Assembly (NCBI GenBank): GCA_021160725.1
Contig: JAGHCA010000044.1
Location: 1 to 51,549, forward strand
Origin: Dehalococcoidia bacterium
Lineage (GTDB): Bacteria; Chloroflexota; Dehalococcoidia; GIF9; AB-539-J10
Direction of reading: 5' to 3'
DNA length: 51,549 bases
Shown: positions 14,312-48,716 of the stretch, in pieces
Position numbering within the stretch: the first letter of the stretch is position 1
Layout: each line of letters starts with the position of its first letter
Notes under the pieces: model-generated
Seen by the model: the letters and a program-made list of their open reading frames with translations, nothing else
Database searches by the model: none
Told to the model about the DNA's origin: nothing
Translations under genes and position numbers: made by a program

Positions 14312-14313
14312 TA

Positions 14314-20172: not shown

Positions 20173-20188
20173 TAGCAGGGGAGCCAAA

Positions 20189-33568: not shown

Positions 33569-34447
33569 ATGTGTAAAATAGTAAAAAAGGAGATTCTTGT
33601 CCCCAACACAATTTATCTTAAAGTAGAAGCTGCCGAAATTGCCCGAAAAGCTAAACCAGGGCAGTTTGTCATATTGCGGGTAGATGAAGTTGGGGAGAGA
33701 TTTCCCTTGTCGCTAGCTGGTTGGGATGAGGATAGAGGGACACTCGAAATTCTCTTTCTTATCATGGGGAAAAGTACTATGAAACTCTCTGCTCTTGATG
33801 AGGGCGACTGTATTAGGGATATAGTGGGTCCCCTGGGCAGGCCTACCGAAATTGAATCCTATGGCAATATTCTGTCTGTCTGTAGCACATTTGGAATTGG
33901 TCCTATGGTACCTATGATAAAGGCTCTCAAGGAAAAGGGCAACAAAGTAGTTACAGCCATGGAAGCTAGAGATAAAGCATCTCTATTCTGGGAGGACAGA
34001 TTAAAGAGTGTGAGCGATGAAACATACGTTGTTTTAGGAGATGGGAGCCTTGGGAAACACAGGCGAGTGCGCGAATTTATCACAGAATACCTGGAATCCG
34101 GGAACAAGGTCGATAGGGTCTTCGCATTCGGGCGTATATTTATGATGATGGACTGCTGCAGGGCGACAAAGCCGTTTGATATTAAGACGATTGTCGGTCT
34201 CACGCCAATAATGGTTGATGGTACAGGCATGTGTGGTTGTTGCCGTGTCTCTGTAGGCGGTGAAACGAAATTTACCTGCGTTGACGGCCCCGAATTTGAT
34301 GGTCACTTAGTGGATTGGGAGTTGCTCATTAAGCGGAAACGGGCTTATCTGAGGGAAGAGGCACAGGCATTTAACCTATGGCAACCTGATAACCTGCGGC
34401 GGATTGCAGAGTTATCTGAATTACCCGAGCGAATCTCTGTAATGTAA
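33569..34447 (+). CDS. nfnA: NfnA/SudB-like FAD + [2Fe-2S] subunit (ferredoxin-NADP reductase-like)
   Basis: 292 aa. Carries PGQFVILRVDEVGERFPLSLA and the C-terminal MVDGTGMCGCCRVSVGGETKFTCVDGPEF. Confidence 0.85.
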   Translation: MCKIVKKEILVPNTIYLKVEAAEIARKAKPGQFVILRVDEVGERFPLSLAGWDEDRGTLEILFLIMGKSTMKLSALDEGDCIRDIVGPLGRPTEIESYGNILSVCSTFGIGPMVPMIKALKEKGNKVVTAMEARDKASLFWEDRLKSVSDETYVVLGDGSLGKHRRVREFITEYLESGNKVDRVFAFGRIFMMMDCCRATKPFDIKTIVGLTPIMVDGTGMCGCCRVSVGGETKFTCVDGPEFDGHLVDWELLIKRKRAYLREEAQAFNLWQPDNLRRIAELSELPERISVM

Positions 34448-34449
34448 AA

Positions 34450-35871
34450 ATGGCTGAGAAACCAAAACTGAATCTGAATCGGGTGCCGATACCGAAGCAG
34501 ACTCCGGAGGTGAGGAGGAGGAATTTCAATGAAGTGGCTCTGGGATATACCGACGAGCAGGCTTTGGAGGAAGCCAGTCGCTGTATTGACTGCAAGAAAG
34601 CTGGCTGCAAGGATGGTTGTCCTGTCAATATAGACATCCCCGAATTTATAAAAGCAATAAGGGCAGGTGACATGCCTGAGGCAGCAAGAATACTTAAGAG
34701 CAAGAATAGCCTCCCTGGCATTTGTGGTCGTGTCTGTCCTCAAGAAACGCAATGCGAGATGACCTGTAATCTGGCCAAAAAAGGAGGCCCGATTGCTATT
34801 GGCAGACTAGAGCGGTATGTGGCTGATTGGGAAAGAGATCATCCGGAAATCGCAGAACAACAAAAAGAGCGAATAAGATTCAATGGTAAAAAAGTGGCTG
34901 TAGTTGGCTCTGGACCAGCAGGTCTAACCTGTGCCGCTGACCTGGCCAAGCTGGGGTATGAAGTTATTATTTTTGAAGCACTTCACGTTGCCGGTGGCGT
35001 GCTGATGTACGGCATCCCCGAGTTTAGGCTACCCAAGGTAATTGTTCAGAGTGAAGTTGATTATGTGAAGTCGCTGGGTGTGGAAATTAAGCTCAATCAT
35101 GTTATCGGGAAAATAGCTACCGTAGATGAACTTCTGGAAAATGGCTTTGACGCTGTTTTCTTATCTCCCGGGGCTGGGGCACCGGTATTCCTGAATATAC
35201 CTGGGGAGAATCTTAGTGGTATTTATTCTGCTAACGAGTTTCTTACTCGAACAAATCTGATGAAGGCATATCTTTTTCCTGAGTATGATACCCCTATACA
35301 AGTGGGGAAGCGGGTAGCAGTATTTGGCGCTGGAAATGTAGCTATGGATGCTTCCAGATGCGCTTTGAGACTCGGAGCAGAAGAAGTGTATATTATCTAT
35401 CGGCGCTCCAAAGTGGAAATGCCTGCCAGGCTTGAGGAGAGGGAAAACGCTGAAGAAGAGGGGGTTATTTTCAAGCTTTTGACTAATCCCAGCAGATTTC
35501 TTGGTGATGGACGGGGTAGAGTCAGAGCAGTGGAGTTACATGAAATGGAGTTGGGTGAGCCCGATGAAAGTGGCCGGCCACGGCCGATTCGAAAGCCAGG
35601 CTCTGAGTTCATTATGGAGATAGATACGGCCATTCCTGCTTTGGGCACAAGACCTAACCCGATTATTCCCTCAACAACCAAGGGGCTTGAACTTACTAAG
35701 TGGGGTACCATTTTGACTGATGAGGCCAGTGGCAGGACAAGCAAGGAGAGAGTCTGGTGTGGGGGGGATATGGCTACAGGGGCAGCCACGGTTATTAGTG
35801 CCATGGGGGCAGCACGGCGGGCAGCTACCGATATAGATAAATATTTGAGGGGTAGTACCGAGTGGTCATAA
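34450..35871 (+). CDS. nfnB: NfnB/SudA/GltD-like NAD(P)H flavoprotein with 2x[4Fe-4S]
   Basis: 473 aa. Carries EEASRCIDCKKAGCKDGCPVNIDIPEF..GRVCPQETQCEMTC, VVGSGPAGLTCA, FGAGNVAMDASR..IYRRS and GGDMATG. Confidence 0.85.
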   Translation: MAEKPKLNLNRVPIPKQTPEVRRRNFNEVALGYTDEQALEEASRCIDCKKAGCKDGCPVNIDIPEFIKAIRAGDMPEAARILKSKNSLPGICGRVCPQETQCEMTCNLAKKGGPIAIGRLERYVADWERDHPEIAEQQKERIRFNGKKVAVVGSGPAGLTCAADLAKLGYEVIIFEALHVAGGVLMYGIPEFRLPKVIVQSEVDYVKSLGVEIKLNHVIGKIATVDELLENGFDAVFLSPGAGAPVFLNIPGENLSGIYSANEFLTRTNLMKAYLFPEYDTPIQVGKRVAVFGAGNVAMDASRCALRLGAEEVYIIYRRSKVEMPARLEERENAEEEGVIFKLLTNPSRFLGDGRGRVRAVELHEMELGEPDESGRPRPIRKPGSEFIMEIDTAIPALGTRPNPIIPSTTKGLELTKWGTILTDEASGRTSKERVWCGGDMATGAATVISAMGAARRAATDIDKYLRGSTEWS

Positions 35872-35988: not shown

Positions 35989-37425
35989 CTACCTTATAAT
36001 CTCTTTTATTATTTCACCGTCAGGTGACACGACCTGAATGTTGAAAGGCATTTGACCTAAGGCATGTGTTGAGCAGGATAGACACGGGTCATAGCAGCGG
36101 ATAGCCACTTCAACCCGGTTGAGTATGCCTTCGGTTATTTTGTTGTTCTTTATGTGTGTTTTGGCTACCTCATATACTGCTTTGTTTATAGCAGCGTTAT
36201 TATTGCCTGTGGCTACTATGAGGTTGACTTTTTTGATTTTGCCGGTGTCGTCTACCCAGTAGTGGTGGAATAGAGTGCCCCTCGGTGCTTCGAGCACGCC
36301 AATACCCTGCTCGTTGTATTTGTTGGAAGTGACTATAAGGTCAGTCGAACAGATATCCTTATCCTCCAGCAACTGCTGGATCTTTTCGATGGAATAAAGC
36401 AGTTCTATGAGACGGGCGTAATGATAGTATAATGAACCTTCCACTATGCCGTTATTACCCAGTTTCTTGAAGTTCTTGAGTTCAGCATTGGCTAGTGGAG
36501 TGGATATTCCCTGGCTGACGTTGAGTCGGGCAAGCGGTCCCACCCGATAAGTACCCTTAGGGTAGCCCATCTTCTTGTAAAATGGAAACTTGAGATAAGA
36601 CCAATCCTCCACGTATTCGCTGATGATATCGAGGTAATTGGATGGATTGAACTGGTCTTCGAGGTTCTTTCCTTTCTGGTCAATTAACCGCAATTTGCCA
36701 TCGTAGAGTTCCAGATTGTTGTTTTCATCCACCAGCCCGAGATAGCCTGTGGGAAAACTGGCGCAGGTGCACACAAACTCATTATCTTGTTCATAGTAAT
36801 GCTTAATTACACTTATAGCAGTCTGCGCATCAGCGATAGCCCACCCAATTTGCTTCAATAAATGGTCTCTGTCGGCAGTGGATAGAGCTGTGTTCATGCC
36901 GCCAGGGACAGCGCCGTTAGGATGGATTTTCTTGCCACCTAGCTTTTGAATTACTGTCTGACCAAAGCTGCGAAGCTTGATACCTTTAACAGCGATGTCA
37001 GGATTCTCAGCAATCAGCCCAATTATATTTCTCCTTGCCGGTTCAGCATCCATGCCGAGAAGTAAATCTGGGCTGGCAAGGTGGAAGAAATGGAGGGCAT
37101 GGGATTGGAGGACCTGCCCCATATGCATTAATTCGCGCAATAGTTTAGCTGGGCGGGTCAGCTCAACTCCCAAAATCTCATCGCAGGCTTTGGCTGCGCC
37201 CAAGTGGTGGCTCACCGGGCAGATGCCACAAATTCTGGGTGTGATTGCCGGCATCTCCCAGAAAACTCTGCCTTCACAGAACTTCTCAAAGCCTCGAAAC
37301 TGTGTTACATGAAATTTAGCATCAGCTACATTCCCTGAATCATCCAGTTGTATCGTTACCTTGCCATGTCCTTCAAGCCGGCTAACGGGGTTTATTTCGA
37401 TAGTTTTGCTAACTTTAGTAGCCAT
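35989..37425 (-). CDS. hoxH: [NiFe] hydrogenase large subunit, group 3 (HoxH/HydL-like)
   Basis: 478 aa. N-terminal Ni-binding motif RICGICPVSHH and C-terminal DPCLSCSTH, followed by a 24-aa extension. Confidence 0.9.
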   Translation of the reverse strand: MATKVSKTIEINPVSRLEGHGKVTIQLDDSGNVADAKFHVTQFRGFEKFCEGRVFWEMPAITPRICGICPVSHHLGAAKACDEILGVELTRPAKLLRELMHMGQVLQSHALHFFHLASPDLLLGMDAEPARRNIIGLIAENPDIAVKGIKLRSFGQTVIQKLGGKKIHPNGAVPGGMNTALSTADRDHLLKQIGWAIADAQTAISVIKHYYEQDNEFVCTCASFPTGYLGLVDENNNLELYDGKLRLIDQKGKNLEDQFNPSNYLDIISEYVEDWSYLKFPFYKKMGYPKGTYRVGPLARLNVSQGISTPLANAELKNFKKLGNNGIVEGSLYYHYARLIELLYSIEKIQQLLEDKDICSTDLIVTSNKYNEQGIGVLEAPRGTLFHHYWVDDTGKIKKVNLIVATGNNNAAINKAVYEVAKTHIKNNKITEGILNRVEVAIRCYDPCLSCSTHALGQMPFNIQVVSPDGEIIKEIIR

Positions 37426-37439
37426 GTTTTCACCTCTTT

Positions 37440-37976
37440 CTAATCGAAGCGCATCATATCGCTGGGCAGAACTGGTATTCTGCCTGCCAGCAACTCTTTT
37501 AACGCATATAAGATAGCTCCAGCTTCTGGTGGACAGCCTGGCACATAACAGTCTACCTTTACCACGTGATTTGCTGGTTTTACCTGGTCTAGGAGTGCTG
37601 GCACACCAGGCGGGCAGGGTATTTTGCCTTTGTAGGTACTTTCAGTCTCGATATATCCTCGCCTGAGAACCTCTTCTTTATCGAAAGTGTTGCGCATAGC
37701 ACACACACCACCGAAACAGGCACAATCCCCCCAAGCCATAAGGATTTTGCAGTGAGCCCTGAGTTCCTTGAGCACCTCTTCCTCTTCAGTATTGCCGACA
37801 GAGCCTTCCACAATGCCGACATCTACCTGGGGGAAGTCCTTTATGTCTGTTATAGGAGTTCTAGTGAATTCGACCTTATCGGCTAGCTCGATTATCGCCT
37901 CATCAATATCAAGGAATGACATATGACAGCCAGCACAAGCTTCCAACCAGATTGTAGCTACCTTGACCTTTGTCAT
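37440..37976 (-). CDS. hoxY: [NiFe] hydrogenase small subunit (HoxY/HydS-like, Nqo6/NuoB fold)
   Basis: 178 aa. Carries ACAGCHMSF..GDCACFGG..GCPP. Confidence 0.85.
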   Translation of the reverse strand: MTKVKVATIWLEACAGCHMSFLDIDEAIIELADKVEFTRTPITDIKDFPQVDVGIVEGSVGNTEEEEVLKELRAHCKILMAWGDCACFGGVCAMRNTFDKEEVLRRGYIETESTYKGKIPCPPGVPALLDQVKPANHVVKVDCYVPGCPPEAGAILYALKELLAGRIPVLPSDMMRFD

Positions 37977-38001
37977 GTTAGAAACTCCTTCTTTTCAATT
38001 G

Positions 38002-39993
38002 CTATTTCTTCATCTGTTGCGAAATTTCACGCAATATCTCTGCATCTGCCTTGATGTCATCAGATGATTTGACGAGGGGCGAAGTCAATTTGGCTATACC
38101 GTCCAGTGTGGTATATTCTTCCCCTACCTCTGTCCAGATTGGCGATGGTAACACGACGTCGGCTTTCGATGTTGCTGATGAGAGATAACTTGATTGAATA
38201 ACTATGAATTCTAATCCTGTGCTAAGGTTTGGTAATTCTGATGCGTCAACATAGTCATCAGACAGAAGTAAGTATAAAGCCTTTATGTTGTTGCTCGTCA
38301 GGTTCTTTATGATTGATTGCGATGAATTGGCTATTCCTATATCCCAGGCGCCACGGCTATTTCCCTTGGGTTTTAGAGAGATGATTTGTGGTCTCTCTTT
38401 ATCTTGACTGCTGACGATGGTTGCCAAATTGAGGAGAGATGTTATCAGCCCGGGATTCTTGTGTTGCAGAACGCCTTCGCCGTAGACTATGATGTTGTGC
38501 TTAGCCTTGCTGAGCATATCTGCAGCCTCAAGAAGATCATCGCTATCTATCCCAGCTCGCTTACTATTTTGCTTTACATTGATATCCTTGAGGGATGCTG
38601 CTACTTCCTTTGTCCGGGCAGAGTCTTTCTTAGTGCTCTTCTCTATGACAGCTTTGGATAGGACATTCACTGCTAGTTGCTCAGTGCCTTCCTTTGGTTT
38701 TAGCCACAGCGTAGCATGGTAAGGGAAGGCATTTTGCGCCGGGTCGATAATGATAAGCTTTGCCTTGTTCCCTCTTACTGCTCTGGCAATATAAGAACCA
38801 GCCACAGGATGGCTTCCAAGGGGATTGGCTCCTACCACGATTATGCAATCAGCCTTGAGTATCTCTTCTAGCGAGGTTTCGATATCCAAACCTCCCTGAG
38901 CTCGAGGACCGTTTATGCCCTTGATAATGGTTCTGTAGGTATCCCCATCGAGAGTGTCGATTAAGTCACTGCCGATTGTACCGGCTATGAGTTCTTTGAA
39001 GGCCTTGAGGGAGTTGGTACTGGCCTGGCTTGATGCTATGCCAGCTATACCGTTACTGCCATACTGTGCTTTCAATCGAGCAAGTTTATTGGCTACCGTG
39101 TCTATGGCTTTAGATAGTGGCTGTGGCTCGAGCTTACCGCGACCATTTCTTACCAGTGCTGACTTGACACGTTCGTCTTTTCTGGACAACAGAGCAAAAC
39201 GTCCTTTGTCACAAAGTATGCCGCGCTTGCCAGTAATGTCAGGGCTGTCAATTCTCACGAGCCTGTTATCCTTGACTAGCGCTTCAATCTCGCAGCCAAT
39301 CCCACATATTGGGCATATGGTGTTTACCTTTTGGCATTCTTGGGGTTTTCCCTTGTAGGCGCTGTTCTTGGAGAATATGGCACCTGTGGGGCAGGCTTGA
39401 AAACAAGCTCCGCAGGAAATGCAGGATGATGTTCCTAAAGGTTGATTGAGGTCGGCGATAACCATGTCTTTCCAACCGCGATGGCCAAAGTCCAGTGCAT
39501 GAACGCCCACAATTTCATCGCAAGTCCTGATGCATCTGCCACACAAAATACAGCGATTATGGTCAATAACTAGGTAATCGTTTACTGAGTCTACAGGTAA
39601 CGCTGGCCATGAATATGGATAGCGCACATTGTCCATCTGGTACTCATAAGCAAGGCTCTGTAGTTCACAATCGCCGCTGGCCACGCACTGAGCGCACAGG
39701 TGGTTGCGTTCGGTAAACATCAATTCCAGAATCAACCGGCGATATTTCTCCAGTTTTTCATTGTGTGTCTGTACTACCAACCCATCTCGTGCCGGATAGG
39801 TGCATGCAGGCACAGGGCGCCTTTCTTTTTCAATATCAACCACACACATGCGGCAGGCGCCGACATCAGTTAGCCCTTTTAAGTGGCACAAGGTTGGGAT
39901 GTGTATGTTGTTAGCTTCACATACCTCAAGAACAGTATCTCCCTCCTTGCCTTTCACCTGCTTGCCATTGACTGTAAGCGTTATTTCTTTCAT
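38002..39993 (-). CDS. NuoG/HoxU/HydA-like Fe-S subunit with truncated molybdopterin-oxidoreductase-like domain
   Basis: 663 aa. N-terminal [2Fe-2S] (CHL..GACRMCVV) and several 4Fe-4S motifs (CILCGRCIRTC, CISCGACFQACP). MopB-type Fe4S4 motif CPICGIGCEIEA..GILCDKGRF, followed by ~400 aa of molybdopterin-like fold. Confidence 0.85.
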   Translation of the reverse strand: MKEITLTVNGKQVKGKEGDTVLEVCEANNIHIPTLCHLKGLTDVGACRMCVVDIEKERRPVPACTYPARDGLVVQTHNEKLEKYRRLILELMFTERNHLCAQCVASGDCELQSLAYEYQMDNVRYPYSWPALPVDSVNDYLVIDHNRCILCGRCIRTCDEIVGVHALDFGHRGWKDMVIADLNQPLGTSSCISCGACFQACPTGAIFSKNSAYKGKPQECQKVNTICPICGIGCEIEALVKDNRLVRIDSPDITGKRGILCDKGRFALLSRKDERVKSALVRNGRGKLEPQPLSKAIDTVANKLARLKAQYGSNGIAGIASSQASTNSLKAFKELIAGTIGSDLIDTLDGDTYRTIIKGINGPRAQGGLDIETSLEEILKADCIIVVGANPLGSHPVAGSYIARAVRGNKAKLIIIDPAQNAFPYHATLWLKPKEGTEQLAVNVLSKAVIEKSTKKDSARTKEVAASLKDINVKQNSKRAGIDSDDLLEAADMLSKAKHNIIVYGEGVLQHKNPGLITSLLNLATIVSSQDKERPQIISLKPKGNSRGAWDIGIANSSQSIIKNLTSNNIKALYLLLSDDYVDASELPNLSTGLEFIVIQSSYLSSATSKADVVLPSPIWTEVGEEYTTLDGIAKLTSPLVKSSDDIKADAEILREISQQMKK

Positions 39994-39995
39994 GT

Positions 39996-41430
39996 CTATT
40001 CTCCTGCTTCAAGGTCACATCTTAGACATCGGCTGGCTTCCTCTATTGCCTCCTTCGCGCTGTAAGGTAAGACTGTCTCCTCAAAGGAAGTTATCCTATC
40101 AGCAGCGGGAATCTCGCCAATCTTTAGTCGATGCTTTTCTTCAAGCTGGTCTTCGGTCGGCATCACGGAAGGCACATCTATCGGTTCGTAGCCGTTGCGT
40201 TCGACTAATGGTGTGAGTTCTTCTCCTTGAAGATATCGCCTTATTGAGCAAGCTGCCCTTTGTCCTGCAGCTATTGCTTCGATTACTGTGGCTGCGCCCG
40301 TATGTACATCTCCGCCGGCGAAAACTCCTTTACGTCCGGTAGCTAGAGTTCTCGGGTCGGCTACTATCGTTCCCCGTTTTGTTACGCTTATCCCATCTCT
40401 GCTAAGGTACGTAGTATCAGGTCTCTGTCCTGTAGCTTCGATAACCGTATCGAAATTCACAGTGTATTCGGAACCCTTGATCTGGTAAGGGGTTTTTCTG
40501 CCACTCTTGTCAAACTCCCTTGGTTCCATGCGGACGCACTCGACCCCATCGACTTTGCCGTTCTTGCCCATGATCTTGACTGGCGCCGTTAGACAGTGAA
40601 TAAGTATGCCTTCCTCTTCAGCGGCCTCGATCTCTTCAACTATTGCCGGCATATCTCTCTTTTCTCTTCGGTAGAGGATATGCACTTCTTTGGCGCCCTT
40701 TCTTAGGGCTACTCTGGCTGTATCGATGGCTGAGTTCCCACCCCCAACGACGGCCACTTTTTGTCCTACCTTGATATCTTTCCCCAGGTTTACTTCCCTC
40801 AAGAAATCAATGGCGTCAAAGACTCCATTCAGGTCTTCACCAGGGATGCCCATCTTGTCACCTTTATGTGCACCGGTAGCGATAAATACTGCCTGGTAAC
40901 CGTCTTTCAGCAGAGATTCGACATCGTTTACAGGTGAGTTAAGTCTTATATCAACCCCGAGCTTTTTTACTGTTTCGATCTCTCTGTTGAGAACGTTCTT
41001 GGGGAGGCGGTATTCAGGTATACCTACCGCCAGCATCCCACCAGCCACAGGCAGGGCTTCAAACACGGTAACCTGGAAACCTTCTCTGGCAAGATCCCAG
41101 GCTGCTGATAAGCCCGCCGGACCAGCGCCAATAATTGCTATCTTTTCTTTCCTTTTCTCTTTGATTTGAGGAATGTATTCAAGTCCGTGGTTAAATGCAT
41201 AGTCAGCAGCGAACCTCTTCAGATGCTTGATTGCAATAGGGTCTTCAATCTGAGCTCTTCGACATTTGCCTTCGCAAGGGTGGTGGCACACGCGTCCGAC
41301 ACTCAATGGTAATGGTAGCCGTTGCATGATGAGCCTGTAAGCTTTCTCAAAGTTACCTGCTTTTATGAGAGCAACATATCCCGGGACGTCTAGTCCAACA
41401 GGACAGGTATGCTGACATGGTGCCCTGAAG
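39996..41430 (-). other. GltD/NfnB-like module of the NuoF fusion
   Basis: Starts near ..PLFRAPCQHTCPVG (about 41430) and runs to the stop codon. Confidence 0.7.
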
Positions 41431-43085
41431 AGAGGTTGACAGACTACAGCCGGGCATTTTTTGTCTATGATATGCGCTTCGTATTCCTCTCTGAAATGCC
41501 GAAGTGTGGTTAGCACCGGGTTAGGGGCTGTTTGCCCCAGACCACAGATAGAGGCAGAACCGACCATCTCAGCCAGCTCTTCTAGTGTAGCGAGATCTTC
41601 CATCGTGCCTTCGCCGTTTGTGATCCTGGTCAATAGTTCAAGCATCTTGGGTATCCCGGCACGGCATGGAGTACATTTGCCACAAGACTCGTCCCTGGTA
41701 AATTGGAGAAAGAACTTGGCGACGTCAACCATACAGCTATCCTCATCCATTACCACTAGTCCACCCGAGCCCATGATAGCCCCCAGCGCAGTAACAGCCT
41801 CATAGTCTACTGGGGTATTTAAGTACTCGATAGGGATAACGCCGCCCGATGGACCTCCTATCTGCACTGCTTTGTACTTCTTCCCATTCGGTATACCGCC
41901 GCCGATATCAAATACAATCTTTCCTAAACTTGTACCCAAAGGGACTTCAACCAGACCTGTGTTATGCACCTTGCCAACCAGACATAAAGTTTTTGTGCCT
42001 TTGCTGGTTGTGGTACCGACGCTACTGAACCATTCAGCCCCTTTCCAGATTATCTGTGGGACGTTCGACCAGGTCTCCACGTTGTTGAGCGTGGTGGGCT
42101 TGTCGAAAAGTCCTTTGTTAGCCGGGAAGGGTGGTCGCTGGCGAGGATTTCCTCGTTTTCCTTCGATTGATATCAGAAGGGCTGTCTCTTCGCCGCAGAC
42201 AAAGGCACCGGCTCCCGGGAATATATCCAGGTCGAATTCAAAGCCAGTTCCCAGAATATTTTTCCCCAGCAGGCCGTATTCTCGAGCCTGGTTTATAGCG
42301 TGACTTAATGTTTCGATAGCAAGGGGATATTCAGCGCGGATGTATGCATAACCTTGGCGCACATTGCCTATGGCATAGGCTCCTATGGCCATACCCTCGA
42401 CTATTGAATGTGGGTTGCCTTCGAGGACAGCGCGGTTCATATAGGCGCCGGGGTCACCTTCGTCACCGTTGCAGACAACATATTTTTCATCGCCCTGAGC
42501 ATTGCGGACAAACGTCCACTTTGTAGCTGTTGGGAAGCCTGCTCCTCCTCGACCTCTCAAGCCAGCTTTTCCTATTTCTGCGATAACATCCTCCGGCTTC
42601 ATCTGGGTCAGTGCTTTAGCCAGCGCTTGATAGCCGTCTCGGGCGATGTATTCTTCGATGTTCATCGGGTCGAGGTCCTGGTTATGCATTACCCGTATTT
42701 CTTGCAGCTTGAGCAAGGGGTCATCGGGATTTAGTTTCCATTCGTCTACTATCTTACCTTTAATGAGGTGCTGCTCGATGACCTTGGGAACTTTATCCTC
42801 GGAGAGATCGTAATAGATAGTCTTGCCTTTTATGGGATGAACAATTGTAACTACTGGTTCTCGGTCGCATAAGCCAATGCAGGCTGCCTTTAATACGACG
42901 ACTTCTGTTAACTTACGGCTTTCGATCTCTCGTTGAAAAGCCGCAAGGACTTTGTTTGCGCCTGAAGATATTCCGCATGTTCCAAGATGAACTTTTACCT
43001 GGGTCTTCTTTTCTCGTTGCGACAGTTTCTTGTTAATTTGGTCTACAAGCTTGTTTAATTCTTCTACCGACGCAAGTCGTTTCAT
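39996..43085 (-). CDS. NuoF/HoxF/HydB-like FMN-NADH subunit fused to a C-terminal GltD/NfnB-like module
   Basis: 1029 aa. N-terminal thioredoxin-like [2Fe-2S] domain (GTCGISSGA..CIGLCDREP). NuoF core (GLRGRGGAGFPTATKW, ESCGKCTPCR). GltD block (CPVGLDVPGY..GRVCHHPCEGKC, IIGAGPAGLSAA, VVGGGNSAIDTAR..LYRRE). Ends ..EEASRCLRCDLEAGE. Confidence 0.85.
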   Translation of the reverse strand: MKRLASVEELNKLVDQINKKLSQREKKTQVKVHLGTCGISSGANKVLAAFQREIESRKLTEVVVLKAACIGLCDREPVVTIVHPIKGKTIYYDLSEDKVPKVIEQHLIKGKIVDEWKLNPDDPLLKLQEIRVMHNQDLDPMNIEEYIARDGYQALAKALTQMKPEDVIAEIGKAGLRGRGGAGFPTATKWTFVRNAQGDEKYVVCNGDEGDPGAYMNRAVLEGNPHSIVEGMAIGAYAIGNVRQGYAYIRAEYPLAIETLSHAINQAREYGLLGKNILGTGFEFDLDIFPGAGAFVCGEETALLISIEGKRGNPRQRPPFPANKGLFDKPTTLNNVETWSNVPQIIWKGAEWFSSVGTTTSKGTKTLCLVGKVHNTGLVEVPLGTSLGKIVFDIGGGIPNGKKYKAVQIGGPSGGVIPIEYLNTPVDYEAVTALGAIMGSGGLVVMDEDSCMVDVAKFFLQFTRDESCGKCTPCRAGIPKMLELLTRITNGEGTMEDLATLEELAEMVGSASICGLGQTAPNPVLTTLRHFREEYEAHIIDKKCPAVVCQPLFRAPCQHTCPVGLDVPGYVALIKAGNFEKAYRLIMQRLPLPLSVGRVCHHPCEGKCRRAQIEDPIAIKHLKRFAADYAFNHGLEYIPQIKEKRKEKIAIIGAGPAGLSAAWDLAREGFQVTVFEALPVAGGMLAVGIPEYRLPKNVLNREIETVKKLGVDIRLNSPVNDVESLLKDGYQAVFIATGAHKGDKMGIPGEDLNGVFDAIDFLREVNLGKDIKVGQKVAVVGGGNSAIDTARVALRKGAKEVHILYRREKRDMPAIVEEIEAAEEEGILIHCLTAPVKIMGKNGKVDGVECVRMEPREFDKSGRKTPYQIKGSEYTVNFDTVIEATGQRPDTTYLSRDGISVTKRGTIVADPRTLATGRKGVFAGGDVHTGAATVIEAIAAGQRAACSIRRYLQGEELTPLVERNGYEPIDVPSVMPTEDQLEEKHRLKIGEIPAADRITSFEETVLPYSAKEAIEEASRCLRCDLEAGE

Positions 43086-43094
43086 TGCACTCTC

Positions 43095-43625
43095 CTATCG
43101 ATATGAACTCAGGATATCCTTTAGTCTGCTGGGCTTCACTCTCCTATGTATATCTTCATTGATGGCTAACACAGGAGATAAACCGCAACAGCCAATGCAC
43201 CTTACTGTTTGTAGCGAGAATCTGCCATCTGCTGTCGTCCCCCCAGACTCAAGACCGAGCTCTTTCTTCAGAGTATCAATTATTTTCTGCCCTCCCTTGA
43301 CGTAGCAACTGGTACCCAAACACACCTGAATGACATATTTACCCTTTGGCACCATCGAGAAAAAAGAATAGAAGCTCGTTATTCCATACATCTCGCTTAG
43401 AGGGATTCTCATTTCCCTGGCTATTATTTCCAGAACCTCACGTGGTAGATAGCCAATGAGCCCCTGCGCCTTTTGTAATACCCTGATTGGCGCTCCTGCT
43501 TGTCCCTCAGTAGCTTCAATTATTTTCTTTATTTGCTGCTGTGTCTTGCTATCTATAGCTTTACTTGCTTCCTCTTTGATTGGTTTGGTTTCGACTGCTT
43601 GCTTCAAGGACACCTCCTGAAACAT
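43095..43625 (-). CDS. hoxE: NuoE/HoxE/HydC-like [2Fe-2S] subunit
   Basis: 176 aa. Carries VCLGTSCYVKGG..RCIGCCGLSP (the C-x4-C...C-x3-C NuoE pattern). Confidence 0.85.
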   Translation of the reverse strand: MFQEVSLKQAVETKPIKEEASKAIDSKTQQQIKKIIEATEGQAGAPIRVLQKAQGLIGYLPREVLEIIAREMRIPLSEMYGITSFYSFFSMVPKGKYVIQVCLGTSCYVKGGQKIIDTLKKELGLESGGTTADGRFSLQTVRCIGCCGLSPVLAINEDIHRRVKPSRLKDILSSYR

Positions 43626-43984: not shown

Positions 43985-45802
43985 ATGTGGAAAACTGAAG
44001 CCACGGGAGTGGCACGTGTGGAGATGGCAGTAAGACAGTGTCTCCCCCCCTGCGAGATCAAATGCCCGATAAATGAGGATATCCAGCGGACAAACGTGCT
44101 CATTTCCCTGCTCCCTGAAGATATGGATTCGGCAAGAGAAGGTATGATCCAGATTAGCGATTATCTCTATGAAAGAAATCCCTTCTTCAACATTTGTGGT
44201 TACATCTGCGGAATTTGTGAGCTAGAGTGTAACTACCTCAAAAAGGGTGGTGCAATTAAGAGGAGGCTCCTCAAGAGATTCTTGTCGGATGTTTATACTG
44301 AACATCTTAGGGAACTGGGAAAACTTGAGATAGTCAAAAATAAAGAAAAGGTGGCTGTTATAGGTGGTGGGCCGGGCGGGCTGATGTGTGCCTACCATTT
44401 AAGCAAGAAAGGATATAACGTAACGGTAATCGAAGCTTCTGACAGGCTCGGCGGAGCACTGTGGCTGGTTCCGGATTATCGCTTGCCCAAGGATGTTCTG
44501 CAGACTACGGTTGAAAACCTCGTAAGAATAGCTGGCATAGACGTCCGGTATAACAACAAGCTGGGAGAGGGAGATTTGACACTAGAGCAGCTGAAGAACG
44601 ATGGCTATAAGGCAATCTTCCTCGCAACCGGGCTGCCATTTCCCAGAGTGCTGACTTTTGAGGGAAAATCTTTAGAGGGGCAGGACCTGGCCGGTGTTAT
44701 GTATGGTCACACTTATCTATATGAAGTTAGTTACAATAATATCGCCCCAGATTATTTCAAAGGCAAGAGAGTCATTGTCACGGGAGGGGGGAATGTAGCC
44801 TTTGACGTGGCCAGGTCAGCTAGGAGGCACGGCGCAGAGGTCACTGTCGTAGCCCTTGAACGTGAAGATAAAGACCATAGAGATGGTATACCTGCAGACG
44901 AGCAAGAGATCCGTGGGGCCTGGGAGGAGGGCATAAAAATAATCTATAGCCGTGGTGTGAGAAAAATCATCGGAGAGAGTGGCAGATTTAAGGGAATCAA
45001 CTGCCCGACTTGCGTGAGCGTCTTTGATGAAGAGGGGTTCAATCCAAAATTTGATTGTGCGGACTGTATAGACCTGGAGGGCGATATACTCATAATCACA
45101 GTAGGGCAGGCTCCTGATAAATCACTCTTTCAGAAGGCAGGCCTTCTGGATGAGCGTGGTAGATTTAATGTTGACCATCTAACGTTGCAGAATGTGAACG
45201 AGCCTTGGGTTTTTATAGGCGGTGATGTTAGAAGGGTCGGCTTTATGGTTGAAGCTATGGGTGAAGGGCTTGTGGCTGCTGAATCAATTGACAGATATCT
45301 ACGGGGAGTGGATATGAGGGAGGGGCGAAGAAGAGATTATGAGGGATATCCAATTCCTCTGAGGAAGAATTATAAGAGTGAGCCCGAGGTGCCCTGGATG
45401 CCACCAGAGAACAGAATGCACTTCAAGATTTTTGAGCAGGGATTTACACTCAAAGAGGCGATAGAAGAAGCGCGAAGATGTGTTACTTGTGGGCCATGTC
45501 TGTCTTGTAAAGCCTGCATCTCGATTGGTTTTCAGAAGTCGTTGAGCCCAGTTGAAGTGGATGAAACAAGGTGTAGTGGTTGTGGGCATTGTGTTTATGT
45601 CTGCAATTATTATTCTGCTCATTTGATTAGCTCTGGTGAAAAAATTATATCCGCAACGGATATGTTCAGATGTAAATCCTGCGGCATGTGTGTTGCGGCT
45701 TGCCCATCTGAAGCAAGAAGAATGGTCGATGATGACACAGTGGAAAAGATAGATGAGTTGTACTCGTCTTTGATACAGCGTCCAGACCAAAATATTGTTT
45801 AG
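43985..45802 (+). CDS. GltD-like NAD(P)H flavoprotein with C-terminal poly-ferredoxin
   Basis: 605 aa. Carries CEIKCPINEDI..NICGYICGICELEC, VIGGGPGGLMCA..DYRLPKDV, VTGGGNVAFDVAR, EEARRCVTCGPCLSCKAC, CSGCGHCVYVC and CKSCGMCVAACP. Confidence 0.8.
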   Translation: MWKTEATGVARVEMAVRQCLPPCEIKCPINEDIQRTNVLISLLPEDMDSAREGMIQISDYLYERNPFFNICGYICGICELECNYLKKGGAIKRRLLKRFLSDVYTEHLRELGKLEIVKNKEKVAVIGGGPGGLMCAYHLSKKGYNVTVIEASDRLGGALWLVPDYRLPKDVLQTTVENLVRIAGIDVRYNNKLGEGDLTLEQLKNDGYKAIFLATGLPFPRVLTFEGKSLEGQDLAGVMYGHTYLYEVSYNNIAPDYFKGKRVIVTGGGNVAFDVARSARRHGAEVTVVALEREDKDHRDGIPADEQEIRGAWEEGIKIIYSRGVRKIIGESGRFKGINCPTCVSVFDEEGFNPKFDCADCIDLEGDILIITVGQAPDKSLFQKAGLLDERGRFNVDHLTLQNVNEPWVFIGGDVRRVGFMVEAMGEGLVAAESIDRYLRGVDMREGRRRDYEGYPIPLRKNYKSEPEVPWMPPENRMHFKIFEQGFTLKEAIEEARRCVTCGPCLSCKACISIGFQKSLSPVEVDETRCSGCGHCVYVCNYYSAHLISSGEKIISATDMFRCKSCGMCVAACPSEARRMVDDDTVEKIDELYSSLIQRPDQNIV

Positions 45803-45812
45803 GAGGATTGCA

Positions 45813-46259
45813 TTGAGTGAATATAAACCTAAATTAGTGTGTTTTTCCTGCAAATTTAGCTGGGGTTATCTGACAAACGAAGATATGCTCTCAAGCAAGA
45901 TAGATAACTGGCTTCCACTAATTTGCACGGGGAAAATTGATGCTACTCATATGCTGGAGGCATTCAGAGCGGGGGCTGATGGAATTTTGATACTTGGTTG
46001 TCCGGAAGGGGAGTGTCATTACCAAGATGGCAACTACGAGGCAAAAAAGAGAGTATGTTTAGTTCGCAGGCTGTTAGAGTCCGTTGGTATAGAGAAGGAA
46101 AGGGTTAGGATAGAACTATCCAGAGATCCCGAAGGCAACAGAATCCCCGAGTTGGTGAAAGAGATGAGACAAGAATTGGTAAAACTAGGTCCGGCAAAAA
46201 GGGGTCTGGTGACGGAAAAGAAATCCAAAGAGACCACTAAAGTTAGAGGAGGGAAATGA
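45813..46259 (+). CDS. mvhD: divergent MvhD-like subunit
   Basis: About 148 aa from TTG 45813, 6 nt after AGGAGG. Carries LVCFSCKFSWGY, ICTG and GCPEGECHY. The first Cys motif differs from the FACNWC form of the other copies. Confidence 0.75.
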   Translation: MSEYKPKLVCFSCKFSWGYLTNEDMLSSKIDNWLPLICTGKIDATHMLEAFRAGADGILILGCPEGECHYQDGNYEAKKRVCLVRRLLESVGIEKERVRIELSRDPEGNRIPELVKEMRQELVKLGPAKRGLVTEKKSKETTKVRGGK

Positions 46260-46260
46260 G

Positions 46261-47229
46261 ATGGCCAAGCCGAAGATTGCGATTTGCTGGTTGGGGTCGT
46301 GTGGTGGTTGTGACGAAACGGTAGTGGATATAAATGAAGTACTACTTCGGGTAGCAGCTGCGGTTGATATAGTCCTTTGGCCGGTGGCGATGGACTTCAA
46401 GTATGATAGCCTAAAAAAGATTAAAAATGGGGGAATTGTGTTGGGTATAGTCAATGGGCATGTCAGAAACTCTGAGCAAGAAGAGATAGCCAAGATACTA
46501 AGGGAGAAATCACAGCTAATTCTTGCCTTCGGTGCCTGTGCTTGCTTTGGAGGAACACCTGGATTGGCTAATCTTGCTACGAAGGAGGACATCTTCAACT
46601 GGGTGTACCGTGATGCCCCAACTGTAGTTAACCCAAATAGTAACTACCCCCAGACAATCTCCAATGTCAATGGGAAAGAACTTACTCTGCCTGAATTCTA
46701 TAACCGTGTTTATGCGTTGAATGACATCATCGATGTCGATTATTACCTGCCTGGATGTCCCCCACCTCCATATTTGGTGTTACATGCCGTGAGCGCGGCC
46801 ATCGAAAATAAATTCCCCCCCAAAGGCTCAACCTTAGCACCTCATAGAGCCCTGTGTGATAGCTGTAAACGCAATAGATCGAAGCCGGATAAAATATCAA
46901 TAAGGGAAATCAAGAGAATTCATGAGGTAGAGGCAGACCCCGATATTTGTTTTCTAGCTCAAGGAATAGTATGCCTGGGTCCAGCTACTCGTGATGGCTG
47001 TGGGGAATCCTGCATGAATATCAATATGCCGTGTCGGGGATGCTTTGGCCCTGTGGAGGGAGTCGAAGATTCCGGCGCTAAATTTATCTCTACGATGGCA
47101 TCAATTCTGGACGCAGAGAGTGATGAAGACATAGCAAGAATTGTAAGCCAGTTTGTTGACCCTGTGGGATATCTGTATCGATTTTTACTCCCCGCTTCGA
47201 TACTACAGAAAAAGCAGATTGTGAAATAG
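46261..47229 (+). CDS. mvhG: [NiFe] hydrogenase small subunit, group 3c (MvhG-like)
   Basis: 322 aa. Carries WLGSCGGCDE, GACACFGG and GCPPPP, plus C-terminal Cys clusters (CDSC, CLGPATRDGCGESC, CRGCFGP). Confidence 0.85.
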   Translation: MAKPKIAICWLGSCGGCDETVVDINEVLLRVAAAVDIVLWPVAMDFKYDSLKKIKNGGIVLGIVNGHVRNSEQEEIAKILREKSQLILAFGACACFGGTPGLANLATKEDIFNWVYRDAPTVVNPNSNYPQTISNVNGKELTLPEFYNRVYALNDIIDVDYYLPGCPPPPYLVLHAVSAAIENKFPPKGSTLAPHRALCDSCKRNRSKPDKISIREIKRIHEVEADPDICFLAQGIVCLGPATRDGCGESCMNINMPCRGCFGPVEGVEDSGAKFISTMASILDAESDEDIARIVSQFVDPVGYLYRFLLPASILQKKQIVK

Positions 47230-47252
47230 ATTAGATAGGAAAGAGGTGTACT

Positions 47253-48716
47253 GTGAGCAAAAGGATAACCATAAACCCAATAACCAGGCTTGAGGGACAT
47301 GGGAAAATCGAGATTTTTTTGGACGATAAGGGTGAAGTAGAAGATGCTTATTGGCAGGTAGTGGAGCTTAGAGGATTTGAAACTTTTTGTCTGGGTAGGC
47401 CTATAGAAGAGTTGCCGCGGATTATGCCAAATATCTGTGGCGTTTGTCCAACTCCACATAATATGGCGTCGGTGAAAGCGCTGGATGACCTGTACAGGGT
47501 AGAGCCAACTCCTCCTGCCAAGTTGATAAGGCAGCTCCATTACAATGCTTTCATAGTAGAAGACCATCTGTTGCACTTCTATATACTTTCCTCGCCTGAC
47601 TTTGTCCTTGGGCCAACTAGTGACCCGTCAGAACGGAATATTGTCGGTGTGGTGCAGAAGGTTGGATTGGAGATCGGTGGCAAGGTCATAGAGGCAAGGA
47701 AAAGATGCCGGGAGATAATCCGGCACATTGCCAGCAAGCCTGCCCATCCGGAGGGTGGCTTGCCTGGTGGAGTTTCCGTGGTAATTATCGAGGAGGACAG
47801 AAAATGGATACGGGAAACTGCCGATTTCTGTGTCGAATTTTGCCAGTTTTCTCTGGAGTTATTCAAACAGGTTGTCTTGGACAACAAAGAATATTTGAAT
47901 ATTGTCCTGAATGATGCTTACAAACTGAACACCTATTATATGGGACAGGTTGATGAGAATAATCGCTTGAATTTTTACGAAGGTAAGTGCAGGGTGGTTA
48001 ATCCAAAAGGTGAGGAGTATGCCTTGTTTGATTGCCACGATTATGTTGATTACATAGGAGAGTGGGTTGAACCATGGACATATGTTAGGTTAACTCACTT
48101 GCGACAGATAGGTTGGAAAGGCTTGAACGAGGGTGAAGCGACATCATTGTACCGTGTGGGGCCACTGGCAAGATTAAACGCAGCTGACAATATGTTAACC
48201 CCCCTCGCTCAGAGAGAATATGAGACTATGTTTGATATACTGGGAGGCAAACCTGCTCACCATACTCTCGCTTATCATTGGGCAAGGTTAATTGAAGCTT
48301 TGCAGGCTGCTGAGCATATGCAGAGAATTGCTAATGATCCTTTGCTGACCAGCAAGGATATACGCAATATGGACCTTAAGCTGGACAAGGTTGGCGTTGG
48401 TTGTGTTGAGGCATCGCGGGGAACGTTAATCCACCATTATGAAGCTGATACTGAAGGAAAAGCTACAAAGGTGAATCTTATTGTAGCAACTCAGCACAAT
48501 GCTGCCCCCATATGTTTATCTGTGAAAAAGGCGGCCAGGGAATTTGTCAAGGGTCCCCAGGTGAAGGAAGGTTTCCTCAATATGGTGGAGATGGCTTTCC
48601 GAGCATATGATCCGTGTCTGGCTTGTGCGACTCATGCCCTGCCCGGTCAGATGCCGCTTACAGTGAATATAAGAGAGCATAACGGAGGCTTGATACGGAC
48701 CTTGCAGAGACCATAA
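47253..48716 (+). CDS. mvhA: [NiFe] hydrogenase large subunit, group 3c (MvhA-like)
   Basis: 487 aa. Carries NICGVCPTPHN and the C-terminal DPCLACATH plus an extension. GTG start after AAGAGG. Confidence 0.9.
   Translation: MSKRITINPITRLEGHGKIEIFLDDKGEVEDAYWQVVELRGFETFCLGRPIEELPRIMPNICGVCPTPHNMASVKALDDLYRVEPTPPAKLIRQLHYNAFIVEDHLLHFYILSSPDFVLGPTSDPSERNIVGVVQKVGLEIGGKVIEARKRCREIIRHIASKPAHPEGGLPGGVSVVIIEEDRKWIRETADFCVEFCQFSLELFKQVVLDNKEYLNIVLNDAYKLNTYYMGQVDENNRLNFYEGKCRVVNPKGEEYALFDCHDYVDYIGEWVEPWTYVRLTHLRQIGWKGLNEGEATSLYRVGPLARLNAADNMLTPLAQREYETMFDILGGKPAHHTLAYHWARLIEALQAAEHMQRIANDPLLTSKDIRNMDLKLDKVGVGCVEASRGTLIHHYEADTEGKATKVNLIVATQHNAAPICLSVKKAAREFVKGPQVKEGFLNMVEMAFRAYDPCLACATHALPGQMPLTVNIREHNGGLIRTLQRP

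Follow-up and report, generated by a model that had tools for sequence, protein, structure and literature searches.

Background

In enzymes of the Bfu family, electrons are bifurcated at a site composed of flavin mononucleotide (FMN) and the iron-sulfur clusters C1 and B1, and a mobile domain of HydC or NfnC carries C1 to the B3/B4 domain (PMC12018979). In Tsi NfnABC, C1 serves as the shuttle by which electrons get from FMN to B3/B4, and the ferredoxin site lies between B3/B4 and the C-terminal domain of BfuC (PMC12018979). To define the family, Schut et al. 2022 used a query that included a ferredoxin-type domain on BfuB (IPR017896; PMC9304861). The closest described hydrogenase, NiFe-HydABCSL of Acetomicrobium mobile (7T2R/7T30, PMC8880783), is classified as 'NiFe-Bfu' type 3 (PMC9304861). 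In the described HydABCSL, S1 and the A clusters conduct electrons from H2 to FMN (PMC8880783). The same five subunits are encoded by an operon of a Dehalococcoidia bacterium (GCA_021160725.1, contig JAGHCA010000044.1), located in a stretch of 51,549 nt that is called the window hereafter. A NiFe HydABCSL variant with a GltD module in place of the ferredoxin domain of HydB is conserved across Dehalococcoidia.

GltD modules are already known from related complexes. In StnABC/NfnABC (8OH5, 9N5U, 9BOV; PMC10482914, PMC11829005, PMC12018979), which shares a NuoE-like and NuoF-like core with the enzyme studied here, GltD forms an insertion of the NuoG-like A subunit, where it supplies electrons of mid potential, and BfuB keeps B3/B4 (PMC10482914, PMC12018979). 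The flavin adenine dinucleotide (FAD) of the StnC GltD module is a non-bifurcating, NADPH-specific NADPH:FeS converter. In StnC, the FAD-proximal cluster has Lys170 as a ligand; this residue is kept among StnC homologues, whereas bifurcating NfnB carries Glu at the position (PMC10482914). A HydB 'glutamate synthase domain' in archaeal hybrid complexes (Cell 2024) and an NfnB insertion in ANME-1 HdrA have been described as well. The operon was first noticed in an earlier reading of the window, referred to below as the original prediction, which described it as a hydrogenase merged with an Stn-like module.

Results and discussion

The operon encodes a HydABCSL-type hydrogenase

Domains were assigned by Pfam and NCBIfam profile scans of the open reading frames (ORFs) of the window. 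Positions 35989-43625 of the minus strand hold five packed ORFs in the order hydC, hydB::gltD, hydA, hydS and hydL, separated by gaps of 2-25 bp. Sizes and positions are exactly those given in the original prediction:

43095-43625, minus strand: hydC, 176 aa, NuoE-like; Pfam 2Fe-2S_thioredx (E=5e-48)
39996-43085, minus strand: fused gene hydB::gltD, 1029 aa
38002-39993, minus strand: hydA, 663 aa, NuoG-like
37440-37976, minus strand: hydS, 178 aa, short [NiFe] small subunit; Oxidored_q6
35989-37425, minus strand: hydL, 478 aa, group-3 [NiFe] large subunit; NiFeSe_Hases

For all five subunits, the best match in the Protein Data Bank (PDB) is the corresponding chain of A. mobile NiFe-HydABCSL (7T2R), near full length. 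The HydB core is 60% identical to 7T2R_B across aa 30-554 (E=4e-206), HydL 59% identical to 7T2R_D (E=3e-185, residues 7-478 vs 6-474), HydS 58% identical to 7T2R_E over its full length (E=1e-66), and HydC 42% identical to 7T2R_C (E=8e-42, residues 29-175 vs 9-155). HydA aligns with 7T2R_A from residues 1-659 vs 1-660 (E=2e-123). E-values down to 4e-206 against solved structures rule out chance similarity. Since each subunit has the matching A. mobile chain as its best solved relative, the operon is classified by sequence as encoding a cytoplasmic HydABCSL-type hydrogenase (Bfu family, type 3) that is neither Hox-type nor Mvh-type. The proposed NuoE/NuoF/long-NuoG set of HydABCSL (Bfu) type is thereby borne out.

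A likeness to Hox-type (group 3d) hydrogenases had been proposed as well, and it holds in part. HoxEFUYH (5XF9) likewise combines a NuoE/NuoF-type diaphorase with a short small subunit and a group-3 large subunit, and the large subunits are homologous. The likeness is weaker than that to HydABCSL, however, as HydL scores 620 bits against the HydABCSL chain vs 444 bits against Hox. The runner-up PDB matches of HydL are Hox 5XF9_D (5e-132), then MvhA 5ODC_F (1e-122), and an Mvh-type large subunit located ~10 kb away in the same window is 39% identical to HydL. HoxU comprises ~240 aa, whereas HydA comprises 663 aa with a molybdopterin-like domain, and HoxF is without GltD. The HoxU model NF005745 covers only aa 1-226 of HydA and scores below its cut-off. 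For cyanobacterial Hox, bifurcation with NAD+ and ferredoxin has been reported, with NADPH unused (bioRxiv 10.64898/2026.06.25.734504).

The [2Fe-2S] cluster C1 of HydC is ligated by Cys102, 107, 143 and 147, inside the PF01257 domain that aligns to 7T2R_C. HydA carries the Pfam domains Fer2_4, NADH-G_4Fe-4S_3, two copies of Fer4, Molybdop_Fe4S4 and Molybdopterin. From these and the Cys pattern, a [2Fe-2S] cluster, a His-type [4Fe-4S] cluster, two further [4Fe-4S] clusters and the Molybdop_Fe4S4 cluster, which in this family takes up the electrons from HydS, are predicted. The Pfam scan found no Molydop_binding domain in HydA, in keeping with the truncated molybdopterin-type domain that had been predicted for the NuoG-like subunit. 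Neither an H-cluster domain nor Fer4_20 nor Pyr_redox_2/GltD was found there by the same scan, and the molybdopterin-like domain is cofactor-less by sequence. For HydS (178 aa), one proximal [4Fe-4S] cluster is predicted. Its Oxidored_q6 domain and the following two motifs of HydL agree with the proposed pairing of a short NuoB-fold small subunit with a group-3 large subunit:

37207-37236, minus strand: HydL L1 motif RICGICPVSH, aa 64-73, matching the group-3 [NiFe] pattern RxCGxCxxxH
36064-36090, minus strand: HydL L2 motif DPCLSCSTH, aa 446-454, matching the pattern DPCxxCxxH

The cofactor-less HydA cluster domains, the single-cluster HydS, the His/Cys site of HydB and the HydL tail are all shared with A. 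mobile HydABCSL. The tail, 24 residues after the L2 His with the sequence ALGQMPFNIQVVSPDGEIIKEIIR, is listed at window positions 36016-36087 (HydL aa 447-470 region). It is kept in A. mobile HydL and in the Mvh-type large subunit of the window, which is odd for a segment expected to be cleaved off.

Unlike in A. mobile, genes for HydD, HisK and HydP are not found in the window operon. As the original prediction had noted, hyp genes or a gene for a maturation endopeptidase (HycI-type protease) are not found among the ORFs of the window either. In one related locus (L020, 15217-15693, minus strand) a HycI-type maturation protease is encoded directly after hydL, and in another (L036, 15209-15712, plus strand) a 167-aa HoxU-like FeS protein follows hydL. 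Neither has a counterpart 3' of hydL in the window.

The GltD module takes the position of the B3/B4 domain of HydB

Pfam divides the 1029-aa HydB into Complex1_51K (3e-43), NADH_4Fe-4S (2e-35), Fer4_20 (aa 549-633, 1e-26) and Pyr_redox_2 (aa 648-941, 6e-36). The features of the N-terminal part are as follows:

41427-43085, minus strand: hydB core, aa 1-553, with a thioredoxin-like N-terminal domain, the FMN/NAD(H) site and B1
41439-41474, minus strand: Bfu-specific His/Cys site, His538, Cys544 and Cys549, plus Cys451 upstream

The FMN/NAD(H) site is marked by GRGGAGFP at aa 178 and the flavin-pocket motif GGPSG at aa 410. Cys468, 471, 474 and 514, the ligands of the [4Fe-4S] cluster B1, are invariant in 57 fused homologues. 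The N-terminal domain (aa 24-105) is a partial PF01257 match and has the ligands His33, Cys37, Cys69 and Cys73 instead of four Cys, that is, H-x3-C...C-x3-C vs C-x4-C...C-x3-C in A. mobile. The corresponding B5 site of Tsi NfnB holds Zn (PMC12018979).

The Bfu-specific B2 site on BfuB has been described in PMC9304861 and PMC12018979 and is not present in non-bifurcating homologues. By alignment, His538, Cys544, Cys549 and Cys451 correspond to the A. mobile B2 ligands H525, C531, C536 and C438, and they are invariant in the 57 homologues. In A. mobile, B2 is a [2Fe-2S] cluster with C476 as fifth ligand, whereas HydB of the window has Thr489 at this position, as in Csac NfnB. Because of this replacement, the site more likely holds Zn than a [2Fe-2S] cluster. 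Zn occupies the equivalent His/Cys site in other Bfu structures (PMC12018979). Of the sequence features of the Bfu family that were looked for, the C-terminal ferredoxin-type B3/B4 domain is absent, the N-terminal (B5) domain is there but with His and three Cys as ligands, and the others are all present.

A. mobile HydB can be aligned up to residue 541 of its 597, just past AHI-x3-R-CPA-x2-C. In an unfused BfuB (P0138, 597 aa), H-x5-CPxxxC is followed by CKGCTLCARNCP...CIKCGTCMEKC, the ferredoxin-like B3/B4 domain. At the same point, HydB of the window runs into QPLFRAPCQHTCPVGLDVPGY, the start of the GltD module, and the first GltD cluster ligand, Cys557, lies eight residues past Cys549. No Fer4-type domain was found after aa 549 of HydB; the segment holds the Fer4_20 domain of GltD with two differently ligated [4Fe-4S] clusters instead. 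A. mobile HydB thus ends in a C-terminal B3/B4 domain with two [4Fe-4S] clusters where HydB of the window carries a 476-aa GltD module. Since P0138 has B3/B4 where HydB of the window has GltD, the module is, to judge by these alignments, a substitute for the B3/B4 domain and not an addition. A single-chain AlphaFold2 model of the 1029-aa subunit, computed from a 47-sequence alignment that is too shallow (73-95% identity), reached a predicted local distance difference test score (pLDDT) of 61 and a predicted template modelling score (pTM) of 0.47, with pLDDT <50 at the junction (aa 537-562), and is too poor for geometric conclusions.

The GltD module is of the StnC type

The original prediction had placed a complete GltD-like module at the C-terminus, at about 39996-41430. 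It is mapped here to 39996-41426, with the following elements:

39996-41426, minus strand: GltD/StnC-type module, aa 554-1029, 476 aa; Fer4_20 and Pyr_redox_2
41217-41417, minus strand: ligands of the two GltD [4Fe-4S] clusters, Cys557, 561, 600, 604, 608 and Lys623
41112-41129, minus strand: FAD dinucleotide-binding motif GAGPAG, aa 653-658, invariant in the 57 homologues
40665-40745, minus strand: NADPH-binding GGGNSA (aa 781-786) and Tyr-Arg-Arg (aa 805-807), invariant in the 57 homologues
40017-40031, minus strand: C-terminal RCLRC (Cys1020, Cys1023), which completes the cluster ligand set; the segment ends EEASRCLRC

The module is colinear with residues 101-567 of 9BOV_A (E=9e-122) and residues 101-566 of StnC (8OH5_C, E=7e-105). 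Its tail aligns to residues 14-43 of T. maritima NfnB and to residues ~540-566 of StnC. The RCLxC segment, which is N-terminal in classical NfnB/GltD, is C-terminal in HydB of the window, the same circular permutation as in StnC/NfnA. In the alignments, StnC and T. maritima NfnB, which use NADPH, share the GGGNSA/YRR motif with HydB, and the arginine of GIPEYRL is present as Arg693. Lys623 aligns with K170 of StnC, where bifurcating NfnB has Glu. Among the 57 fused homologues, the cofactor and nucleotide positions are all invariant except for 623: 53 have K there, three have H and one has R. The FAD and NADPH motifs of the C-terminal block are therefore intact on alignment with StnC/NfnB, and the GltD module of HydB is, on these motifs, complete and of StnC type, with those for two [4Fe-4S] clusters, FAD and NADPH preserved.

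StnC/NfnA has the same permuted topology, Lys cluster ligand and FAD and NADPH motifs, and the composition of NuoE, NuoF and GltD given for Stn in the original prediction is right. The description as a hydrogenase merged with an Stn-like module stands as far as the StnC-type GltD is concerned. It does not stand for the arrangement: in Stn/NfnA, GltD lies between the [2Fe-2S] and [4Fe-4S] domains of A, whereas HydA of the window is without GltD and the module sits on HydB in place of B3/B4, the low-potential outlet of characterised Bfu enzymes. Since HydB retains no recognisable ferredoxin-type domain, its architecture does not imply an Stn-like reaction that depends on ferredoxin. Stn/Nfn-Bfu is furthermore without hydrogenase and has NADPH as its sole mid-potential substrate, whereas the window operon has HydSL and hence an H2 input via A. 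NfnSL (NfnAB) differs in its Glu ligand, its N-terminal RCLxC and its FNR-like NfnS; HydB of the window has Lys623 and a C-terminal RCLRC, and its operon has no NfnS.

These comparisons bear on an enzyme that would interconvert four substrates, H2, NAD(H), NADP(H) and ferredoxin, with ferredoxin docking on the GltD cluster domain or between GltD and HydC. In effect, ferredoxin:NADP+ or Stn/Nfn-like transhydrogenase activity would be built into a bifurcating hydrogenase, an idea near that of the original prediction and near the assumption of Greening et al. for archaeal hybrids. In its favour, the ferredoxin-reducing branch of NfnSL consists of the two [4Fe-4S] clusters that GltD-type modules carry. 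The set of NuoE, NuoF and GltD matches Stn, and a classical NfnSL pair adjoins the operon in the window. However, the B3/B4 domain, half of the sole experimentally seen ferredoxin site of Bfu enzymes, is absent, the GltD module is of the Lys (Stn) and not the Glu (Nfn) type, it is located on B and not in A as in Stn, and the adjacency of NfnSL is seen in only one of 57 related loci. An enzyme of this kind is considered unlikely, though far from negligible.

Of the other known systems, the archaeal hybrid group F [FeFe]/group 3 [NiFe] complexes (Greening et al., Cell 2024, PMC11216029) are similar by description, with a HydB carrying a 'glutamate synthase (GltA) domain'. They also contain NuoE-like, NuoG-like, NiFe small-subunit and NiFe large-subunit components (PMC11216029). 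Their [FeFe] catalytic domain is fused to the NiFe small subunit, whereas HydS of the window is a plain protein of 178 aa, encoded in a Dehalococcoidia host. In ANME-1 HdrA (PMC9012536), the NfnB-like insertion in the ferredoxin domain is a parallel graft, whose host enzyme is HdrA with its FAD-based bifurcation site.

Distribution and origin of the fusion

The genome scan used one genome per species and kept the best 80 of 152 relatives. Among these, ~55 Dehalococcoidia species genomes share the HydB::GltD architecture. The gene order hydC-hydB::gltD-hydA-hydS-hydL is kept in every Dehalococcoidia locus long enough to show it. At the protein level, >120 clusters (90% identity) of 1027-1034 aa cover the full HydB query at 73-100% identity. 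In ~70 loci from different assemblies, the B and G parts are contiguous in one frame, and the aligned blocks are 1-4 residues apart. Among 50%-identity representatives, searched exhaustively, 13 more full-length fused proteins (36-51% identity) were found. An assembly or frameshift artefact as the source of the 1029-aa ORF, for which no evidence was found, is ruled out, for practical purposes, by the >120 clusters, the ~70 in-frame loci and the 13 distant representatives, and the fusion is accordingly a genuine gene. The search for the fusion in related genomes that the original prediction had suggested thus led to these ~55 genomes and, in addition, to [FeFe] operons of Bacillota.

In the Bacillota, [FeFe]-HydABC operons carry the same fusion at 50-58% identity, with the same junction and the same ligands. 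Carriers include Pelotomaculum terephthalicicum JT, Thermovenabulum, Symbiobacterium, Fermentithermobacillaceae and others. The fused hydB is followed by an [FeFe]-HydA with H-cluster domain (Fe_hyd_lg_C, E=5e-105), and no NiFe subunits are encoded, so these operons differ from that of the window in their catalytic subunit. In P. terephthalicicum JT (L080, 6864-13183) and ~18 other Bacillota loci, HydB::GltD comprises 1011 aa; in operons of this type, HATPase and small 2Fe-2S genes sit between hydC and hydB.

In a neighbor-joining (NJ) tree built from the NuoF core, the NiFe-linked fusions of Dehalococcoidia and the FeFe-linked fusions of Bacillota form sister clades; the tree is rough, distance-based and unbootstrapped, and it was used only for this relationship. 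A single origin of all NuoF::GltD fusions is unsupported, as other fused forms scatter among unfused BfuB in the tree. Distant fusions (37-40% identity to the window protein) are found without hydrogenase. Two of them (L083, 312-3482; L085, 7001-10333) are apparently stand-alone and lack an adjacent NuoE gene, and a third, from Desulfobaccales (L084, 4199-10393), follows a molybdopterin oxidoreductase and a Fer4 protein. A locus from a Chloroflexota metagenome-assembled genome (L069, 460-2616) was considered as a possible unfused ancestor, its B part being 86% identical to the HydB core of the window, and rejected, as its tail is a duplicated NuoF-type 4Fe-4S domain. This tail of ~165 aa, which resembles a second NuoF C-terminal 4Fe-4S domain and is also found in P0123 (738 aa), adds a third type to the C-terminal modules that occupy this swap point. 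In the NJ tree, L069 is nested in the Dehalococcoidia clade.

The fused clade was probably missed by the published Bfu census, because the census required a ferredoxin-type domain on BfuB. In full-text literature searches, neither the Dehalococcoidia NiFe enzyme nor its Bacillota [FeFe] counterpart was found to have been described. The HydDB rule reads 'GltD but not NuoF', which implies that NuoF/GltD fusions had been seen before. Annotation pipelines name the fused protein 'FAD-dependent oxidoreductase' or 'NuoF', which leaves a gap in surveys.

Proposed reaction

The reading we favour, at slightly under even chances, is that of an H2:NAD+/NADP+ enzyme in which NADP(H) would replace ferredoxin as the lower-potential partner. 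H2 would be split at the NiFe site of HydL, and its electrons would pass via the HydS cluster and then the HydA clusters to B1 and FMN of HydB, where NAD(H) would bind. From the FMN/C1/B1 flavobicluster, the mobile [2Fe-2S] domain of HydC would carry electrons to the two GltD clusters and on to FAD and NADP+. Here, the FAD of GltD would be a plain two-electron/one-electron converter and no second bifurcating flavin. The net reaction would be 2 H2 + NAD+ + NADP+ <-> NADH + NADPH + 2 H+, in either direction. That the second branch ends at FAD/NADP(H), with the GltD cluster domain in the B3/B4 position, is inferred from chain connectivity.

With assumed cellular nucleotide ratios, the computed potentials are ~-282 mV for NAD, ~-367 mV for NADP and -325 to -355 mV for H+/H2 at 100-1000 Pa H2. 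Because E(H+/H2) falls between NAD and NADP, a coupling of both nucleotides to H2 is energetically meaningful. The computed ceiling for H2 release, under the same assumed ratios, is ~93 Pa for the confurcation of NADH and NADPH vs ~3 Pa for NADH alone.

Alternatively, the enzyme could be a non-bifurcating, NAD(P)+-reducing hydrogenase, in which FMN and the FAD of GltD are independent exits or entries on one wire with no energetic coupling. Like a soluble NAD(P)-linked hydrogenase, it would reduce NAD+ and/or NADP+ with H2, or form H2 from either of the two. Both the NAD and the NADP couple lie above H2 in standard potential, so coupling is unneeded at high H2, and the occurrence of NuoF::GltD apparently on its own or beside a molybdopterin oxidoreductase fits a simple NADH/NADPH-linked module for electron transfer. 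However, HydC with C1, the Bfu-specific His/Cys site and the flavin-pocket GGPSG are all retained, and the nearest relatives are tightly coupled bifurcating enzymes. Dehalococcoidia of sediments and aquifers are moreover assumed to live probably at low H2, where coupling would matter. Such an uncoupled enzyme is therefore regarded as improbable.

Several points weigh against the coupled H2:NAD+/NADP+ reaction. It is a prediction for all members of the fused clade, and at high H2 the use of a low-potential branch to reduce NADP+ would be a waste of driving force. Where the GltD cluster domain lies with respect to the HydC domain is deduced solely from the connectivity of the chain. Ferredoxin could dock on the GltD cluster domain; in NfnSL, it docks near the distal cluster of NfnL. 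The stand-alone NuoF::GltD proteins without an adjacent NuoE gene (L083, L085) indicate that C1 may be dispensable for transfer from FMN to GltD. From sequence, the nucleotide used at the FMN site of HydB cannot be predicted. Finally, for the equivalent domain in the archaeal hybrids, Greening et al. predicted that ferredoxin accepts the electrons (PMC11216029).

A broader and more tentative reading is that the enzyme may be a ferredoxin-independent bifurcating/confurcating hydrogenase that represents one case of a wider design, in which a Stn-type GltD module serves as an 'NADPH port' at a ferredoxin outlet. With the same reservation, this design would span HydB, two HdrA-like proteins and an Mvh-linked protein of the window, the Bacillota [FeFe] enzymes and ANME-1 HdrA.

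Genomic context of the operon

The operon is embedded in an island of redox genes. Divergent from hydC, positions 43985-48716 (plus strand) encode a 605-aa Lys-type GltD protein with a C-terminal domain of two [4Fe-4S] clusters, followed by MvhD (FlpD), MvhG-like (322 aa) and MvhA-like (487 aa) genes. By gene content, this appears to be an Mvh-type hydrogenase tied to an NADPH module in place of HdrA. The GltD-Mvh neighbour is kept in the 10 closest loci, and five more distant loci show HdrA-MvhDGA there. A second MvhDGA set is also found in the window.

At lower coordinates of the window, positions 20153-23554 and 25156-27915 (both plus strand) encode HdrA-like proteins of 1133 and 919 aa with an inserted GltD-type module. 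Both inserts (Fer4_20 and Pyr_redox_2) have the Stn-type Lys ligand, and the genes are flanked by MvhD and HdrBC-like (Fer4 + CCG) genes. The two proteins are a bacterial counterpart of the 'HdrA-NfnB' insertions of ANME-1. Since Lys-type GltD modules sit on the two HdrA-like proteins and the Mvh-type hydrogenase too, the gene set suggests that NADPH ports on bifurcating complexes are a theme of the organism.

Convergent to hydL, positions 33569-35871 (plus strand) encode an NfnSL-like pair, a 292-aa DHODB_Fe-S_bind protein and a 473-aa NfnB-like protein. The latter has an N-terminal RCIDC and a Glu ligand and is thus of the classical Glu type. A conserved synteny of this pair with the operon was rejected, given the single occurrence among 57 related loci.

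Positions 13193-17602 (plus strand) encode, in this order, a sigma-54-like protein (372 aa, DNA-binding domain only), a 648-aa protein and an NtrC-type sigma-54 activator. In the 648-aa protein, an [FeFe]-hydrogenase H-cluster domain (Fe_hyd_lg_C, E=1e-54) is joined to HisKA and HATPase_c. Judged by their domains, these genes look like an H2-sensing two-component system by the Hdr/hydrogenase island. The sigma-54-type regulator genes lie ~20 kb from the operon, and no regulatory claim follows. The sigma-54 consensus scan gave 7 matches vs 3.3 expected; in the 359-bp region upstream of hydC, 0 matches to TGGCAC-N5-TTGC with one mismatch were found. Consensus scans of the operon for sigma-70 promoters and terminators gave nothing informative above the shuffled background.

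Conclusions

The fused hydrogenase offers a natural test of the Bfu mechanism, as the ferredoxin outlet is covalently swapped for a two-electron NADP+ reductase. It raises the questions of whether gating works with a nucleotide acceptor, at which potentials this branch operates and where ferredoxin is really required. If H2 is coupled to NAD and NADP jointly, this would be a new kind of hydrogenase reaction, and it would account for the balance of NADH, NADPH and H2 in widespread Dehalococcoidia of sediments, aquifers and peat.

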